Below, in pieces: positions 24,913-31,001 of a DNA stretch of 32,000 nucleotides (position 1 is its first letter; every line of letters begins with the position of its first letter). The stretch is from assembly GCA_963718585.1 (NCBI GenBank), contig OY970357.1, positions 540,001 through 572,000 on the forward strand, written 5' to 3'. A program made the position numbers and the translations under genes. The DNA comes from Candidatus Saccharimonadota bacterium. GTDB taxonomy: Bacteria > Patescibacteriota > Patescibacteriia > 2-12-FULL-60-25. A model generated the notes under the pieces. It was not told the origin of the DNA and searched no databases. It saw nothing but the letters and a program-made list of their open reading frames with translations.

Positions 24913-24951
24913 GGGCTGGGCTGTGCTATGGTTCAAAAGAACCCCCTCTGT

Positions 24952-25251
24952 ATGTCCAAAAACCCCTTTCTCAACGCCGGAGCCGCCGCGGTCTACATCG
25001 TCGCGATCGCGAGCCTTATGCAGTTCCTGACGAAGTTCGCTCCACCGAAGGACTCGCTCCTCGCCCCGATCGCGGTCCTCTCCCTCTTCACCCTTTCCGC
25101 GGGCGTCATGGGATATCTCTTTCTTAGCGAACCGATCCAGATGTATCTGGCGAATGAAAAGAAGAAGGCCGTTTCCCTCTTTGTCCAAACCCTCTTCGTC
25201 TTTGCCGGCATCACGGCCGCCGCGATCGTCCTCCTCTTCGTCCGGATCTGA
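24952..25251 (+). CDS. Hypothetical small membrane protein (99 aa, 3 predicted helices)
   Basis: Only the hydrophobic C-terminal part of ORF 24514..25251 is credible, because the upstream part overlaps the tRNA. An alternative start is at 24928. Confidence 0.5.
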   Translation: MSKNPFLNAGAAAVYIVAIASLMQFLTKFAPPKDSLLAPIAVLSLFTLSAGVMGYLFLSEPIQMYLANEKKKAVSLFVQTLFVFAGITAAAIVLLFVRI

Positions 25252-25260
25252 CCCCAAACG

Positions 25261-25288
25261 AAAACCGGCCCTCGAGGGCCGGTTTTTT
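25261..25288. terminator. Bidirectional terminator
   Basis: AAAA-CCGGCCC-tcga-GGGCCGG-TTTTTT. Confidence 0.85.
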
Positions 25289-25302
25289 GATCTCAATGGT
25301 GA

Positions 25303-26172
25303 TCAATGCTTTGCAAGCGCCGCGTCGATCGCGGACTTGAGCTGCGCGTAGGGCACCGCACCTTCGAGGATCGTCCCATTGACGAACGTGCTCGGGGTGC
25401 CTGTCACGCCGGCTGCGGAACCTTCCGATTCATCCTGCGCAACTTTGGCGGCGTATTTCCCGGAATCCAGACAATTCTGGAACTTCGTCGGATCGACACC
25501 CGCCTGCTTCGCCGCGACGGAGAGCTGGTCAAGTGCGAATCCCGTGCCATTCGAGGTGGTCTTTTGAAACACGTAGTCATGGAAGGCCCAGAACGCGTTG
25601 TTCCCGCCAAGTTCGGCCACGCACTCTGACGCTTCAGCTTCCTTCTCCGCATTCTGGTGGAAGGACAACGGGAAGTGGCGATACACGAGACGGACGTCAT
25701 TCGGATAATCACGCAAGGCCTGTTCCACCGTGTCGTGATACTGCTTGCAGTACGGACATTCGAAGTCCGAGTACTCGATCAGGGTGACCTTCGCGTTCTT
25801 CGCTCCGCGGATGTGGTCGGTCTTGTCATCCACCGGCTTGACCGGCCCGGCGGCTGCGGCCTGCTGCTGTGTCGGATCCGCGGCAGCGGTCGGTACCGCA
25901 GGCGCTGCGGGGGCCGCGGCAGCCGCGCTCGTCCCGAGGTTCAGCGAAAGCCCTTTCCCGGATGTGATCGCGATCACGATGTAGACCAGGGCGATCGTCG
26001 TACACACCGCGATCCCAGCCAGGAGGCCGAGTGCGAACATGGTCTTCGCATTCCCCTTCATCCCCCCGGGTGCGACATGCATGTCTAAACCATGTGAATG
26101 ATCATGTGAGTGGTCGTGAGCATGCTCATGCGGATGCTCGTGTGGGTGTTCGTTCATCATAGGGGTAGACAT
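25303..26172 (-). CDS. Membrane-anchored DsbA-like thiol:disulfide oxidoreductase with an N-terminal His-rich tail
   Basis: A thioredoxin-fold domain with CPYC and the cis-Pro motif GTPSTF. It has one TM helix, and the N-terminus reads NEHPHEHPHEHAHDHSHDHSH. Confidence 0.8.
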   Translation of the reverse strand: MSTPMMNEHPHEHPHEHAHDHSHDHSHGLDMHVAPGGMKGNAKTMFALGLLAGIAVCTTIALVYIVIAITSGKGLSLNLGTSAAAAAPAAPAVPTAAADPTQQQAAAAGPVKPVDDKTDHIRGAKNAKVTLIEYSDFECPYCKQYHDTVEQALRDYPNDVRLVYRHFPLSFHQNAEKEAEASECVAELGGNNAFWAFHDYVFQKTTSNGTGFALDQLSVAAKQAGVDPTKFQNCLDSGKYAAKVAQDESEGSAAGVTGTPSTFVNGTILEGAVPYAQLKSAIDAALAKH

Positions 26173-26223
26173 TTAATGTGTAGATAGCTTACGCGAGCGC
26201 GGCTTCACGGTCGAGCGACGGCG

Positions 26224-26919
26224 TCAAGACCCGCTCTCCTTCAGGAGCGCATCGAGCGCAGTCGTCCAATCCTGCGAGCTCATTCCGCCGACGTATTCCG
26301 TATTCCCCAGGAAAAAGGTCGGTGTCCCGTTGACCCCGTTCGCATTCCCCTCGGCCATGTCATCCTGGATCTTCCGGAGATCCGGCTTGCTCGCGAGACA
26401 GGCCGTGAAGCTACTCGTATCCAAACCCAATGAGGATGCATACGAAACAAAGGTCTGTGTGGGTGCGGACTGATCGGCCCACGCGCTCTGGTTGTCATAC
26501 AACATCGTACGATATTCCCAGAACTTCCCCTGATCCTCGGCACAGCGCGCCGCGATGGCCGCTGGCTGCGCATTCGGATGAACTGATGTCAGCGGAAAAT
26601 CATTCCAGACGAAACGCACGCGATCAGAGTAGTTCTTGATCGCATCCTGCAAACCAGGCTCCGCCGCCTTACACGCCGGACACTCGAGGTCGCCGAAGAT
26701 CCGGACAACGGACTTGGATTCTCCCGGCCCGACCGCAGGATCCCCGTCATCGCTGAATCGCACATCATTCCGGACGGTCCCATTCGCCGTATTCGAAGCG
26801 GTCGGCGAAGCACTCGGTCCGGACATGACGGCCCAAATGAGTCCGAGCACGATGAGGACGATCAGGAACCCGATCCCGCCGAGCAAAAGGACCCGCGTCT
26901 TGTCATCTGATTGGTTCAT
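26224..26919 (-). CDS. Membrane-anchored DsbA-like thiol:disulfide oxidoreductase
   Basis: An N-terminal TM helix, CPAC, and GTPTFF. Its ATG overlaps the upstream stop as ATGA. Confidence 0.8.
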   Translation of the reverse strand: MNQSDDKTRVLLLGGIGFLIVLIVLGLIWAVMSGPSASPTASNTANGTVRNDVRFSDDGDPAVGPGESKSVVRIFGDLECPACKAAEPGLQDAIKNYSDRVRFVWNDFPLTSVHPNAQPAAIAARCAEDQGKFWEYRTMLYDNQSAWADQSAPTQTFVSYASSLGLDTSSFTACLASKPDLRKIQDDMAEGNANGVNGTPTFFLGNTEYVGGMSSQDWTTALDALLKESGS

Positions 26920-27830
26920 ACCGTGTTTTGTTGAAGATAATGAATGATATCAAGCGCCGCTTTACTCCCCTCTCCGACCGCGACCGCCACCTGCTTCGTG
27001 GTCACGTCTGTCACGTCACCGGCTGCCCAGATCCCAAGGGTCGATGTCCGATTGTTCCGGTCGACGATGATCTGTCCCCGTTTGTCCTTACCGACGATGT
27101 CGATGAATTGCGAGACGGGGATCAACCCCACTTCGACGAAGACGCCTTGCGTCTCCTCGACCCGTTCATCTTCCCCCTCCTTTTGAAGACCGATCCCGGT
27201 CACGAATTGCGCTCCTTCGATCTTCGTGGTCTTCGTACTGCCGAGGACCGTGATCTTCGGCGACGCAAGGCATCGCTTTTTAAGCAACTCATCTCCCCGA
27301 AGTTCCGGATTGATGGAGACGATCGTGATCCTGCTCGCATATTTCTCTAAAAACAACGCAGCGTCCATGGCGCTGTTCCCGCCGCCGATCACATGGACGA
27401 CCTTATTCGCAAAAAGCGGCGCGTCGCATGTCGCGCAGTAGGTCACACCTTTGCCGTAATAGTCTTTTTCTCCCGGGATGTTCAGCTTCCGATTCTCTTC
27501 TCCGGTCGTGATGAGGACCGTCTTCCCTTCATACGCCCCCTTTTCCGTGGTCACCTGAAATCCGTTCTCGAGCTTTGTGACCCCTGTGACCAATTCCCCT
27601 TCCCGGATCTCGAATTGATCCTTGTAATCTTTGAGATGCTCACGGAATTTCTGGACCAGTTCCACGCCGCTCAAGAGGTGGAATCCGAGATAATTCTCCA
27701 CATCTGAGCTCCAGAGGGTCTTCCCACCCACATCGCCACTCAACATGACGAACGAGACCTTTTGGCGTGCAAGATAGACGGCGGCCGCCATCCCTGCGGG
27801 ACCGGCGCCGATCACGATGACGTCAAACAT
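26916..27830 (-). CDS. Thioredoxin-reductase-like FAD-dependent disulfide oxidoreductase
   Basis: MFDVIVIGAGPAG, the redox motif CATCD, GGGNSA and AAGDV. The HRRxxxR NADPH motif is replaced by SINPELR. The start is at 27830; the ORF track's TTG at 27881 is unlikely. Confidence 0.85.
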   Translation of the reverse strand: MFDVIVIGAGPAGMAAAVYLARQKVSFVMLSGDVGGKTLWSSDVENYLGFHLLSGVELVQKFREHLKDYKDQFEIREGELVTGVTKLENGFQVTTEKGAYEGKTVLITTGEENRKLNIPGEKDYYGKGVTYCATCDAPLFANKVVHVIGGGNSAMDAALFLEKYASRITIVSINPELRGDELLKKRCLASPKITVLGSTKTTKIEGAQFVTGIGLQKEGEDERVEETQGVFVEVGLIPVSQFIDIVGKDKRGQIIVDRNNRTSTLGIWAAGDVTDVTTKQVAVAVGEGSKAALDIIHYLQQNTV

Positions 27831-27850
27831 GCGAGGAGTATAACAGAAAG

Positions 27851-27927
27851 AATCTAGAATCTGGAATCTAGGATCTGGCAAGGCACCCCATTCGAGACCA
27901 TAGATCCTAGCTTCTAGCTTCTAGCTT
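27851..27927. repeat. Two CTAG-containing heptamer arrays forming a 22-nt imperfect inverted repeat
   Basis: AATCTAG AATCTGG AATCTAG GATCTGG (27851-27878) and CTAGCTT x3 (27907-27927). The arms at 27855-27876 and 27902-23 are complementary at 19 of 22 positions. Confidence 0.7.
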
Positions 27928-28665
27928 TTTCCCCCGGCTCTGCCACACGAGCCAAACGCCCGTGGCAATGAGCGGGAAGGTCGCCCACTGGGTCGGAGTC
28001 AATCCGAAATATCGGATATCGACGGTGCGATAGAAATCCAGCCAAAGACGTGCGATCCCGTCGAGCGCCATGAGCATTCCGAACCAAAATCCCGGACCGC
28101 GTGGCTTGCGGGCAAGGATCAGGAAGAGGACCCCGATGGTGAAGCCGGTTATGGAGAGATAGAGACCCAGATCATGACGAGAGTGGCCGTCCGGATATTT
28201 CACGGCCAGTGCGAAATCCGATAGCGTGCCTGGATGGTCGTGGATCAAAAAACATCCGATCCGCCCGATCCCGCATCCCCATGGGATACCCCAAGCGAGC
28301 GTGTCGGCATACGCCATGAAATCGAGCTTCTTCTTCCGGACGTACGCCCAAAAGACGAGTCCGCATGCGGCGAAACCACCGAAGATCGCATATCCCGGTC
28401 TGCGCGGATCGAACGCCTCTAGCGGATGTTGGAGGTAGTAACCGGGCTGATAGAACAAGACGTGGAACAAACGCGATCCCACGAACGCGGCGATGAAGAG
28501 CCAGAATGCCAAATCCCAGATGACCTTCGGGTCCAATCCCCGTTCCTTGGCCTTGCGCGCGGCAACGACCGTGCCGACGAGATACCCGGTCGCGACAAGC
28601 GTCCCCCACGTCTGCAGGGTGATCGGACCAAGCTGGATGGTATGGGATTCGATCCACGGGATCAT
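27907..28665 (-). CDS. lgt: Prolipoprotein diacylglyceryl transferase
   Basis: Polytopic. GYAIFGGF and GIGRIGCF motifs resemble the Lgt signature. 252 aa. Confidence 0.9.
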   Translation of the reverse strand: MIPWIESHTIQLGPITLQTWGTLVATGYLVGTVVAARKAKERGLDPKVIWDLAFWLFIAAFVGSRLFHVLFYQPGYYLQHPLEAFDPRRPGYAIFGGFAACGLVFWAYVRKKKLDFMAYADTLAWGIPWGCGIGRIGCFLIHDHPGTLSDFALAVKYPDGHSRHDLGLYLSITGFTIGVLFLILARKPRGPGFWFGMLMALDGIARLWLDFYRTVDIRYFGLTPTQWATFPLIATGVWLVWQSRGKKLEARS

Positions 28666-29132
28666 AGGACGTTCAAGATCTTCAGTGCGCGTTCAAAATC
28701 GTCCATTGCCCGTTTGATCTCCCGCGGCGTGACGTTGAAGGATGCATCGTGCGCGAGTTGATTACGGAGCTTGTGCGCCCACCAGACCTCACGCAACTTC
28801 GGATATTTGTAACACGCGACCTTCAACCGCTCGCCAAGCGTCTCTCCCGGCATCATCATGGACTTCAACCCCACGTCGAGGAGGGTGTCAGCTTCAAGCA
28901 GGGCAAGCTTCCCGCCCATGAGACCCTGCGTTTGCGCGGTCTGTCGGACCTGCGCCCAGCGTTTGGCCAATTCCTCGCGCGTCATCCCCATCATTTCGGG
29001 TCGTTGCGCGCGTCGGATCACCCACCGGAGACCCAGGACGATCACGGTCAACAAGACGAGCCCGGCGATGACCAGGATCCCGATCTGAGGCAGGGTCAAT
29101 CCCGGGGACGGCACCGAATACAGATCGCTCAT
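28662..29132 (-). CDS. Hypothetical single-pass membrane protein with an AHKLRNQLAH (Rx4H) motif
   Basis: It has an N-terminal TM helix (IGILVIAGLVLLTVIVLGL) and shares ATGA overlaps with both gatA and lgt. Confidence 0.6.
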   Translation of the reverse strand: MSDLYSVPSPGLTLPQIGILVIAGLVLLTVIVLGLRWVIRRAQRPEMMGMTREELAKRWAQVRQTAQTQGLMGGKLALLEADTLLDVGLKSMMMPGETLGERLKVACYKYPKLREVWWAHKLRNQLAHDASFNVTPREIKRAMDDFERALKILNVL

Positions 29133-30556
29133 ACGCCCGCTTCTTCGTACACGCGCGCGATCGCAAGGATCAGGTCTTCTTCAAACGGCCGACCGATGAG
29201 ATGCATCCCGACCGGTAATCCATCCGATGTCCCGCAGGGCACGGACACGGCCGGGAGGCCGGTCACGTTCGCCCCGACGGTAAAGACGTCTTCCAGATAC
29301 ATGGACATGGGATCCGACGTCTTCTCGCCGATCTTGAATGCGGTCGTCGGTGCGGTCGGTGTCAGGAGGACGTCCACGTCGCGCAGGGCGGATTCATATG
29401 CGTTCCGAATCAAGGTCTGCACTTTCTTGGCTTTGAGATAATACGCATCGTAATACCCACGCGAGAGCGCAAAGGTCCCGAGAAGGATACGCCGACGGAC
29501 TTCCGGGCCCAGATTCTCCGCGCGCGTCTTCGCATAGGTCTCGAAGAGCGGAAGATCCTCCAATCGCACGCCATAGCGCATCCCATCGAAGCGCGCGAGG
29601 TTTGCAGAGACTTCGCACGGCATGAGGAGGTAATAGACCGCCAGCGCCTCGTCCGCATACGGCAGATCCACCTCGGTCACGGTCGCGCCGGCATCTTCAA
29701 GACGTTTCACAGCCGCCGTGACCGCGGAACGGACACCTTCCGCCATCCCCTCGCCCCATGCCTGTCGCGGCAAACCGATCCGTAGTCCGGAAAGGTTCTC
29801 TCGCCACGACGGAATGAATGCCGCGTGATCGCTCGTCGTCTGATCGAGCGGATCTTGTCCTTGGATCGCCTGGAAGAACAATGCCGCATCTTCAGCGGTC
29901 TTGGTCATGGGTCCGATCTGATCGAAAGACGAGGCCATGGCGATCAGTCCCGAACGCGACACGCGGCCATATGTGGGCTTCAATCCCACCACGCCGCAGA
30001 ACGCCGCAGGTTGGCGGATGGATCCGCCAGTATCGGATCCGAGCGCCGCCAAACAGAAATGCGCTGCGACCGCGACCGCACTGCCGCCGGAAGACCCGCC
30101 CGGAACGCGTTCCGGATCACGTGGATGATACGTCGGACCGTATGCGGAACGCTCGGTCGACGACCCCATCGCGAATTCATCCATGTTCGTCCGTCCGAGG
30201 ATCACGGCGCCCTGCTCCTTCAACTTCCGTACGACCGTCGCATCTGACGCGGACACGTGTCCTGCGAGGATCTTCGATCCCGCCGTGACCATCTTTCCCT
30301 GATCGAGAAGATTATCCTTCAGCGCGATGGGGAGACCGTCCAATACGCCGTTCCGTTCTCCGGAGGAACGACGATGGTCCGCCCGACGCGCGGCTTCTAG
30401 GGCGACATCCTCATACGTCGCCAAGAATGCGTGCAGCGCGCCGTCGAGGGATCGGATCTCCTCCAGACACGCCTTCGTCACCTCTTCGGACGAGATATCT
30501 CCACGGTCGAGCCGCGAACGCGCCTCCGTAAGGGTCAGTTGGTTCAATCGGTTCAT
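29129..30556 (-). CDS. gatA: Glutamyl/aspartyl-tRNA amidotransferase subunit A
   Basis: The amidase signature GGSSGGSAVAVAA; 475 aa; N-terminus LTLTEARSRLDRGDISSEEV. Confidence 0.95.
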   Translation of the reverse strand: MNRLNQLTLTEARSRLDRGDISSEEVTKACLEEIRSLDGALHAFLATYEDVALEAARRADHRRSSGERNGVLDGLPIALKDNLLDQGKMVTAGSKILAGHVSASDATVVRKLKEQGAVILGRTNMDEFAMGSSTERSAYGPTYHPRDPERVPGGSSGGSAVAVAAHFCLAALGSDTGGSIRQPAAFCGVVGLKPTYGRVSRSGLIAMASSFDQIGPMTKTAEDAALFFQAIQGQDPLDQTTSDHAAFIPSWRENLSGLRIGLPRQAWGEGMAEGVRSAVTAAVKRLEDAGATVTEVDLPYADEALAVYYLLMPCEVSANLARFDGMRYGVRLEDLPLFETYAKTRAENLGPEVRRRILLGTFALSRGYYDAYYLKAKKVQTLIRNAYESALRDVDVLLTPTAPTTAFKIGEKTSDPMSMYLEDVFTVGANVTGLPAVSVPCGTSDGLPVGMHLIGRPFEEDLILAIARVYEEAGV

Positions 30557-30692: not shown

Positions 30693-31001
30693 TCAGTTTT
30701 TCCCTTTCGGATTCTCGAACACCCCGGGCGTCTTCAACAGATTCCCGCTCTTCACAGGAAAATTCGCAAGGATCAATTCGCGCGTCGCATCATCGGATGC
30801 GAACGCAACGTCTTCGCGCCATCCTTCAGCCCGCGCTGGCATGGTCAACGGCTGGACTCCTTCCGTCCCCACTTCTTTCAACCGCTCGACATAGACAAGG
30901 ACCTCGTCCAGGTCGTGCACCATGGATGCGGCTTCCGTATCTGTGAGCTCCAACCGGGCCAGATCGGCCAACGCGGCGATATCCTCTTTTTTCAGTGACA
31001 T
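30693..31001 (-). CDS. gatC: Glutamyl/aspartyl-tRNA amidotransferase subunit C
   Basis: ~100 aa. IAALADLARLELTDTEAASMVHDLDEVLVYVERL is typical of GatC, and the gene lies upstream of gatA. Confidence 0.85.
   Translation of the reverse strand: MSLKKEDIAALADLARLELTDTEAASMVHDLDEVLVYVERLKEVGTEGVQPLTMPARAEGWREDVAFASDDATRELILANFPVKSGNLLKTPGVFENPKGKN

Follow-up and report, generated by a model that had tools for sequence, protein, structure and literature searches.

Why should a gene for a cytoplasmic, thioredoxin-reductase-like flavoprotein overlap with a gene for an exported, DsbA-like thiol oxidoreductase? This arrangement is found in a 32,000 nt stretch of DNA (C1:540001-572000, hereafter the window) from the complete genome, a single contig of 1,084,458 bp (completeness 100), of a tiny bacterium of the groundwater type, whose closest proteins and contigs carry the source names Candidatus Uhrbacteria or Patescibacteria. 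On the minus strand of the window, the flavoprotein gene, here called TrxRL, is followed by two DsbA-like genes, DsbA1 and DsbA2. A preliminary description listed their motifs, all of which were recovered in place (GAGPAG, CATCD, GGGNSA and SINPELR in TrxRL, CPAC in DsbA1, CPYC in DsbA2), and proposed an undescribed electron route or envelope redox module. The results described below point to a simpler answer. TrxRL is quite probably an accessory second paralogue of the low-molecular-mass thioredoxin reductases, of the kind represented by the C-terminal module of AhpF, by Cp34 and by the Thermoplasma acidophilum thioredoxin reductase (TaTR), and its neighborhood is an ordinary, lineage-specific gene order, not a new electron route.

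Sequence and cofactor site of the flavoprotein

The ATG at 27830 yields a protein beginning MFDVIVIGAGPAG. A TTG at 27881 opens a longer frame, but the starts of the orthologues match the ATG instead. The protein has the two-Rossmann architecture of low-molecular-mass thioredoxin reductases: it covers positions 1-291 of the 291 positions of the Pyr_redox_2 profile (3e-41), with the FAD motif GAGPAG (residues 8-13) and, close to the C-terminus, AAGDV, and it aligns with PDB entry 3CTY over residues 2-295 (4e-61). Matches to solved thioredoxin reductase, AhpF and DsbA structures span the full lengths of TrxRL, DsbA1 and DsbA2. The scores remained below the cut-offs of the two specific models, with 278.8 bits for TIGR01292 (the TrxB equivalog, cut-off 343.45) and 270 bits for TIGR03140 (AhpF, cut-off 503). 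Among the solved relatives, TaTR (3CTY, 210 bits) and AhpF (194 bits, 2e-56) scored higher than DTR (135 bits) and the clostridial FFTR (126 bits). A canonical trxA-trxB pair is encoded elsewhere in the genome (C1:63.6-64.9 kb), and its TrxB has the motifs HRRDAFR and CDGFFF and exceeds the TIGR01292 cut-off with 424 bits. Thus, TrxRL is a second copy.

The functional motifs of TrxRL are highly conserved. The redox-active CxxC was found in all 16 family sequences compared (CATCD in 14, CAACD in L017 and CATCE in L027), and the pyrophosphate loop GGGNSAM is invariant in the 16 orthologues, followed by D in 15 of them. Neither frameshifts nor internal stops were detected in 28 orthologues. The site that binds the 2'-phosphate of NADPH is different: TrxRL reads VSINPELRGD where the canonical TrxB of the same genome reads VHRRDAFRAS, so that the HRRxxxR cluster is absent, and all 16 orthologues follow the consensus [ST/I]-h-N-x-x-L-x-GD, which includes no conserved basic residue. 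An intact GGGxxA loop without the arginine cluster is a trait of the class that comprises the AhpF C-terminal module, Cp34, TaTR and DvTR3, and TrxRL shares it. The region after the CxxC also deviates from the canonical enzyme. TrxRL has CDAPLF instead of CDGFFF and lacks the Phe-Phe pair for thioredoxin docking, which in most of the 16 orthologues is replaced by P-L-F, as in AhpF. The C-terminus ends level with that of the canonical TrxB and carries no aromatic tail.

Because the arginine cluster has been lost, it is unlikely that TrxRL uses NADPH in the normal way, and NADH is probably its reductant. NADH-type TR3 enzymes have a Pro at the Phe position (PMC5627308), and TaTR is now regarded as NADH-dependent, according to the account in PMC6262447 that cites Susanti 2017. 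In AhpF and TaTR, the second beta-strand ends in an acidic residue that binds the ribose hydroxyls, a Glu (LLEF and IIEY, respectively), whose place is taken by a Ser in TrxRL; with this usual Glu missing, we infer the use of NADH and do not read it from a motif match.

The preliminary description had likened TrxRL to the relatives of thioredoxin reductase that do not depend on NADPH, and had named the ferredoxin- or flavodoxin-linked types as examples. The first part agrees with the loss of the arginine cluster; the second part could not be upheld. The clostridial FFTR (6GNA), the cyanobacterial DTR/FFTR (5J60) and the Desulfovibrio TRi likewise lack HRRxxxR, but FFTR and DTR are far more distant from TrxRL (121-135 bits, compared with 210 for TaTR). 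In addition, the cyanobacterial FFTR/DTR enzymes require a C-terminal Trp tail (PMC8154056) that is absent from TrxRL, and in the TRi enzymes, which work independently of NAD(P)H, the pyrophosphate loop has degenerated to GEGxxAxN (PMC5627308), whereas that of TrxRL is intact. Furthermore, a profile search of the complete genome with the models Fer2, Fer4_7, Fer4_9 and Flavodoxin_1, which were positive in 11-14 of 14 control genomes, returned no match, so that a ferredoxin- or flavodoxin-linked enzyme would have no donor. A TrxRL of this type was therefore ruled out. To judge by these four models, soluble electron carriers of low potential seem to be entirely absent from this organism. A natural fusion of a thioredoxin-reductase-like protein with a ferredoxin exists among the relatives of TrxRL: P0124 (394 aa, 43% identical) has a C-terminal plant-type 2Fe-2S domain (Fer2, 1e-18) and retains a GAGNSA loop.

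Relatives and a putative redoxin partner

Relatives of TrxRL were searched among 1.84 billion representative proteins, and a tree of 80 sequences was built, with supports from the Shimodaira-Hasegawa-like approximate likelihood ratio test (SH-aLRT). The TrxRL proteins of the Uhrbacteria family form one clade (SH-aLRT 96, and 99 when P0122 is included) inside a phylum-wide clade of 60 sequences that lack HRR and share the signature CD[AG]PLF (SH-aLRT 90). In six relatives with 40-46% identity (P0123, P0132, P0133, P0137, P0154 and P0182), an N-terminal glutaredoxin (Grx) domain is fused to the flavoprotein, and in seven other Patescibacteria genomes a small Grx-like gene directly adjoins the TrxRL homologue. 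All six fusions and all seven adjacent loci belong to the 60-sequence clade. The nearest sister of the family clade plus P0122 is itself a fusion, P0132, and its Grx domain shares 44% identity with the window genome's own Grx-like protein. This protein is encoded by the sole Grx-like gene of the genome (C1:609820-610062), which scores above the cut-off of TIGR02196, the YruB family. An NADH-dependent peroxiredoxin-reducing system composed of Cp34, Cp9 and Cp20 has been described for Clostridium pasteurianum (Reynolds, Meyer & Poole 2002, as cited in PMC3720550). Altogether, homologues of TrxRL are not rare, as 96 of 401 sampled Patescibacteria genomes contain a hit at E <= 1e-62.

The Grx-like gene lies in an oxidative-stress cluster about 40 kb past the end of the window (C1:606922-610062, locus L201), together with genes for a Bcp-type peroxiredoxin (Prx), an Fe/Mn superoxide dismutase and an AhpC-like 2-Cys Prx. 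In this genome, an open reading frame (ORF) of 828 nt with SLxDS-type repeats (608851-609678, minus strand) separates the Grx-like gene from the Prx gene, while in most sister genera the two are directly adjacent. A stand-alone VKOR gene follows 2.6 kb beyond the cluster. In one Patescibacteria lineage, the gene for a 67-aa CxxC protein precedes the TrxRL homologue (L050:2409-2609, genome G307). The protein resembles the redox disulfide domain associated with hybrid cluster proteins (DUF1858-like) and may be another type of partner in the clade.

Gene order, envelope partners and loss of the flavoprotein gene

The genes around TrxRL form a densely packed row on the minus strand:

31021 to the window end, minus strand: ligA, in the same packed row
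30693-31001, minus strand: gatC
29129-30556, minus strand: gatA
28662-29132, minus strand: hyp156, a conserved 156-aa single-pass membrane protein with one Cys
27907-28665, minus strand: lgt, prolipoprotein diacylglyceryl transferase (Pfam LGT, 7e-45)
27831-27906, minus strand: spacer between lgt and TrxRL, with a CTAG-rich hairpin and a TATACT box
26916-27830, minus strand: TrxRL, a 304-aa low-molecular-mass thioredoxin-reductase-like flavoprotein (Pyr_redox_2, 3e-41)
26224-26919, minus strand: DsbA1, a signal-anchored DsbA-family oxidoreductase with CPAC (Thioredoxin_4 5e-24, DSBA 5e-16)
25303-26172, minus strand: DsbA2, a signal-anchored DsbA-family oxidoreductase with CPYC (Thioredoxin_4 2e-30)
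25262-25292, minus strand: GC-rich hairpin followed by a T-run, 3' of DsbA2 (read by eye)
24931-25251, plus strand: small membrane ORF without Cys, about 106 aa long and with three predicted helices (no Pfam match)

As the preliminary description had stated, lgt lies directly upstream, ending 76 nt before TrxRL, and the TGA stop codon of TrxRL shares letters with the ATG of DsbA1 (gtATGAacc). DsbA1 and DsbA2 are separated by 51 nt. A functional message had been seen in this tight coupling. However, ATGA overlaps are also present at the gatA/hyp156 and hyp156/lgt junctions, and therefore the overlap of TrxRL and DsbA1 is a generic feature of the row. A TATACT box 8 nt ahead of the ATG is probably TrxRL's own promoter of the leaderless type; of the nine upstream regions shown for orthologues, most have a similar -10-like box about 3-10 nt ahead of the start codon. 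At most of the nine orthologue junctions shown, TrxRL and DsbA1 overlap or are separated by a gap within about 11 nt. Thus, TrxRL, DsbA1 and DsbA2 may form a transcription unit of their own. The hairpin in the spacer between lgt and TrxRL was considered as a strong structure and rejected, as its fold z-score of -1.41 is not remarkable. The hairpin and T-run after DsbA2, which were identified by eye and were not listed by the pattern scan, are the end of the transcription unit, shared head-on with the plus-strand ORF; a tRNA-Ser gene and uvrA follow behind them. The protein hyp156, for which the only database match is a weak one to DUF4381, has basic residues after its helix, and its gene lies between gatA and lgt throughout the family as well as in the sister-family locus L054.

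The conserved gene order is gatA-hyp156-lgt-TrxRL-DsbA1(-DsbA2). TrxRL is present in 15 of the 24 sister genera (53-72% identical to the window protein), in the same slot in 15/15, and in 13/13 named Uhrbacteria contigs, one of them at 51% identity, it lies directly upstream of a DsbA-like gene. In the remaining nine genera no TrxRL is encoded anywhere in the genome, yet the row gatA-hyp156-lgt-DsbA1-DsbA2 is intact, with lgt directly abutting DsbA1. The linkage of the three genes, on which the preliminary description had built, thus holds insofar as TrxRL always directly precedes DsbA1 where it is present, but it is not obligatory, and the DsbA pair does not need TrxRL. In the tree built from the flanking proteins, the nine genera without TrxRL are scattered among those with it, which requires at least seven state changes, and genera of both kinds occur together in two well-supported clades. 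This scattered absence, together with the single TrxRL clade, indicates that the gene was present ancestrally and has been lost repeatedly. Outside of the lineage, relatives with 38-49% identity have varied neighbors. Among 40 other Patescibacteria loci with thioredoxin reductase homologues, a DsbA-like neighbor was found only in L054, from the same class, and in L061, where it lies upstream, and among 24 loci of other phyla there was none. L054 has the rearranged order gatA-hyp-TrxRlike-x-DsbA-lgt, and in the 80-sequence tree its thioredoxin-reductase-like gene falls outside of the family clade.

Judged by their sequences, DsbA1 and DsbA2 are conventional exported proteins of the DsbA family. 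Both have the DsbA fold, a thioredoxin fold into which helices are inserted, with near full-length Pfam matches, the active sites CPAC and CPYC and the cis-Pro loops NGTPTF and TGTPST, and each has a second Cys pair, a GTP cis-Pro loop and a linker rich in Ser, Pro and Ala. DsbA1 has a single N-terminal hydrophobic helix, and its CPAC is conserved in 35/35 orthologues. Its closest solved relatives, 4PWO and 7UNN, are presumably actinobacterial DsbA proteins of the MdbA type; these actinobacterial proteins are VKOR-dependent oxidases. DsbA2 has a His-rich tail followed by one helix, and CPYC is replaced by CPFC in most orthologues; its closest solved relatives are 4N30, ScsC-type proteins (4XVW, 6NEN, 4GXZ) and BdbD (3EU3). 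The outward orientation that had been proposed for both proteins is supported by the one N-terminal helix and by an excess of Lys and Arg on its N-terminal side. The orientation was judged by this charge bias: for DsbA1, the values flanking the helix were 1.71 (N) versus 0.51 (C) in 35 orthologues, with N larger than C in 25 and the reverse in 5, and for DsbA2 the bias was weaker (7 versus 1, the remainder ties). DsbA domains that face the cytoplasm and serve as substrates like the N-terminal domain of AhpF were ruled out by the charge bias, the linkers and the second Cys pairs.

The N-terminus of DsbA2 (26083-26172) contains 11 His in 45 residues, compared with only 0-5 His before the transmembrane helix in 26 orthologues, counted in stop-to-stop frames that may include untranslated upstream residues. 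Unlike this tail, a G-x-P-K-T-M-F motif just ahead of the helix is conserved. Several DsbA2 orthologues (e.g., L135 and L102) have a Cys within the hydrophobic stretch, where the surrounding residues resemble a lipobox (VAAC, VASC), and lgt belongs to the same operon. DsbA2 of the window reads IAVC at this point and other orthologues lack the Cys, so that lipidation is doubtful.

The preliminary description had noted that none of the membrane partners DsbB, VKOR or CcdA is encoded nearby. This is indeed the case: no VKOR, DsbB or DsbD_TM gene was found in the window, and the nearest VKOR and CcdA genes are about 45 kb and 175 kb away, respectively. However, the genome-wide search for DsbB, VKOR, CcdA, DsbD and thioredoxin revealed, besides trxA-trxB, one stand-alone VKOR (C1:612.6-613.1 kb, 86.8 bits) and two CcdA proteins (DsbD_TM, 64 and 46.8 bits); only DsbB had no match in the complete genome. 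One CcdA gene is followed by a third DsbA-like gene (CPYC), the other by a gene for a DipZ-like TlpA protein, and altogether the genome contains five DsbA-like genes. At the second CcdA locus (C1:1042783-1044600, L002), the TlpA/redoxin-like protein has 371 aa, the motif CINC and a long C-terminal domain, and the layout resembles that of mycobacterial DipZ. With one VKOR and two CcdA in the genome, the puzzle of the missing partner disappears, and with it the argument for a new route. A transfer of electrons from TrxRL to the exported proteins, directly or via an unrecognized membrane component of the operon, would be in keeping with the adjacency of the genes, the ATGA overlap and the fact that the window contains no partner gene. 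Against it stand the conventional partners elsewhere, the outward orientation of the DsbA domains and the dispensability of TrxRL for the DsbA pair. Moreover, hyp156 has one Cys and a domain on the cytoplasmic side, and the plus-strand membrane ORF has no Cys, so that neither offers a thiol relay; a cryptic relay of this kind in the operon was ruled out. We consider such a route very improbable. By the preliminary description's own measure, namely conventional partners elsewhere together with a linkage that is not obligatory, the idea is essentially refuted.

Weighing of the explanations and known systems

In the explanation that we prefer, TrxRL would take electrons from NADH and reduce a small cytoplasmic redoxin, either the genome's single YruB-type Grx-like protein or TrxA, and the reduced redoxins would then supply thiol enzymes, the peroxiredoxins among them. 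The oxidation of DsbA1 and DsbA2 would depend on the stand-alone VKOR, and their reduction on the CcdA proteins. TrxRL would have been fixed in the ancestor of the Uhrbacteria family inside the housekeeping row gatC-gatA-hyp156-lgt-(TrxRL)-DsbA1-DsbA2, and its later, repeated loss would have had no effect on this row. Several observations weigh against this explanation. At the position where NADH enzymes usually have a Glu, the TrxRL orthologues have Ser, Thr, Ile or Asn. The presence of TrxRL is not correlated with that of the Grx-like gene, which occurs in 23 of the 24 family genomes, nor with that of Prx, which is present in 17 of the 24 (10 of the 15 with TrxRL and 7 of the 9 without), and the assignment of the partner relies on other lineages, in which the two are fused or adjacent. 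Apparently, TrxRL is an accessory reductase and not an obligate part of a Grx/Prx system. Many forks of the family's flank-gene tree are weakly supported. Finally, the co-expression of TrxRL with the DsbA pair, with its fixed slot, short gap or overlap and -10-like box, is real and is left unexplained.

This last point leads to an alternative in which the operon is a functional module. TrxRL, co-transcribed with the DsbA pair, would pass electrons from NADH first to TrxA or the Grx-like protein and then, through CcdA, to DsbA1 and/or DsbA2, which would be kept reduced and act as isomerase or reductase; each step would be conventional. The fixed gene order (15/15 genera, 13/13 named contigs) and the short junctions are in line with this possibility, as are the two CcdA genes, the ScsC-type reductases and isomerases among the solved relatives of DsbA2, and the retention of thioredoxin-reductase-like and DsbA-like genes in the gatA-hyp-lgt cluster of L054 in spite of its rearrangement. 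However, nine genera retain the DsbA pair with TrxRL nowhere in the genome, the CcdA genes adjoin other thioredoxin-fold partners (the third DsbA-like gene and the DipZ-like TlpA), and DsbA1 resembles the actinobacterial 4PWO and 7UNN proteins, which are oxidases that depend on VKOR. In addition, the relatives with 38-49% identity lack a DsbA neighbor in the 40 loci except for the upstream one at L061, and the gene at L054 is not a member of the family clade. The sole fact that keeps this alternative alive is the possible separate transcription unit, and we regard the alternative as unlikely. The same holds for its more specific form, in which TrxRL was recruited for the purpose, within a unit headed by its leaderless promoter, and would act through TrxA or the YruB-type protein and CcdA on DsbA2 and/or DsbA1. 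If true, the operon would constitute a genuine functional module, in a group that lacks a respiratory chain and ferredoxin.

It is also rather unlikely that the position of TrxRL in front of the DsbA genes is meaningless because the protein is independent of pyridine nucleotides or is a decaying paralogue. The loss of HRRxxxR, the lack of an acidic residue at the usual NADH position and the repeated losses of the gene within the family would fit this view, and there is a precedent in DvTRi, which illustrates that thioredoxin reductases without HRR may fail to react with NAD(P)H (PMC5627308). In contrast to the degenerate TRi loop (PMC5627308), however, GGGNSAM is invariant across orthologues of 53-72% identity, 28 orthologues are free of frameshifts and stops, and no ferredoxin or flavodoxin match in the genome offers another donor.

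If the preferred explanation is true, bacteria of the Candidate Phyla Radiation widely carry a second thioredoxin-reductase-like enzyme that lacks HRR and is linked to Grx, and TrxRL is probably the point at which NADH enters thiol redox control in an organism without ferredoxin and flavodoxin. The envelope machinery (VKOR, CcdA and five DsbA-like proteins) is conventional, and no new question about the formation of disulfide bonds arises from it.

The exported proteins of the window resemble MdbA and the DsbA of Mycobacterium tuberculosis, BdbD and the ScsC-type proteins in being signal-anchored members of Thioredoxin_4/DSBA that possess both a Thr-cisPro loop and an additional Cys pair. The active site of the M. 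tuberculosis DsbA is CPAC. A difference from the VKOR-linked systems of MdbA and M. tuberculosis DsbA is that the window genome encodes its VKOR and CcdA proteins away from DsbA1-DsbA2; the roles of DsbA1 and DsbA2 as oxidase or isomerase are putative.

For TrxRL, the best solved relative is TaTR, which likewise lacks HRRxxxR and retains a GGGNSG loop, but it is archaeal, has a Glu at the ribose position (IIEYMPK) and has thioredoxin as its partner. The NADH-preferring C-terminal module of AhpF (1HYU, 1FL2, 4O5Q) matches over the full length of TrxRL and shares the CDxPLF after the CxxC as well as a P-E-h-basic-x-D stretch (SINPELRGD in TrxRL, EFAPEMKAD in AhpF). TrxRL differs from AhpF in lacking the N-terminal double-thioredoxin domain and in having a Ser instead of the Glu at the end of the strand. 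The Cp34 system is a precedent that agrees in layout by three features. TrxRL is, like Cp34 by its description, a low-molecular-mass thioredoxin-reductase-like flavoprotein that works without the NADPH motif; the window genome has, as counterparts of Cp9 and Cp20, a small CxxC Grx-like protein of the YruB family with an adjacent AhpC-like Prx; and among the relatives of TrxRL, a YruB-type Grx is found as a fused domain or is encoded in the adjoining gene. From the TIGRFAM description, we take YruB to be Cp9. The window genome departs from the clostridial system in that the genes are dispersed, with about 43 kb between TrxRL and the Grx/Prx pair, and in that, within the family, the presence of TrxRL does not co-vary with that of Grx or Prx. 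By its sequence features, TrxRL would thus join the known NADH-type, Grx-linked thioredoxin-reductase-like enzymes.

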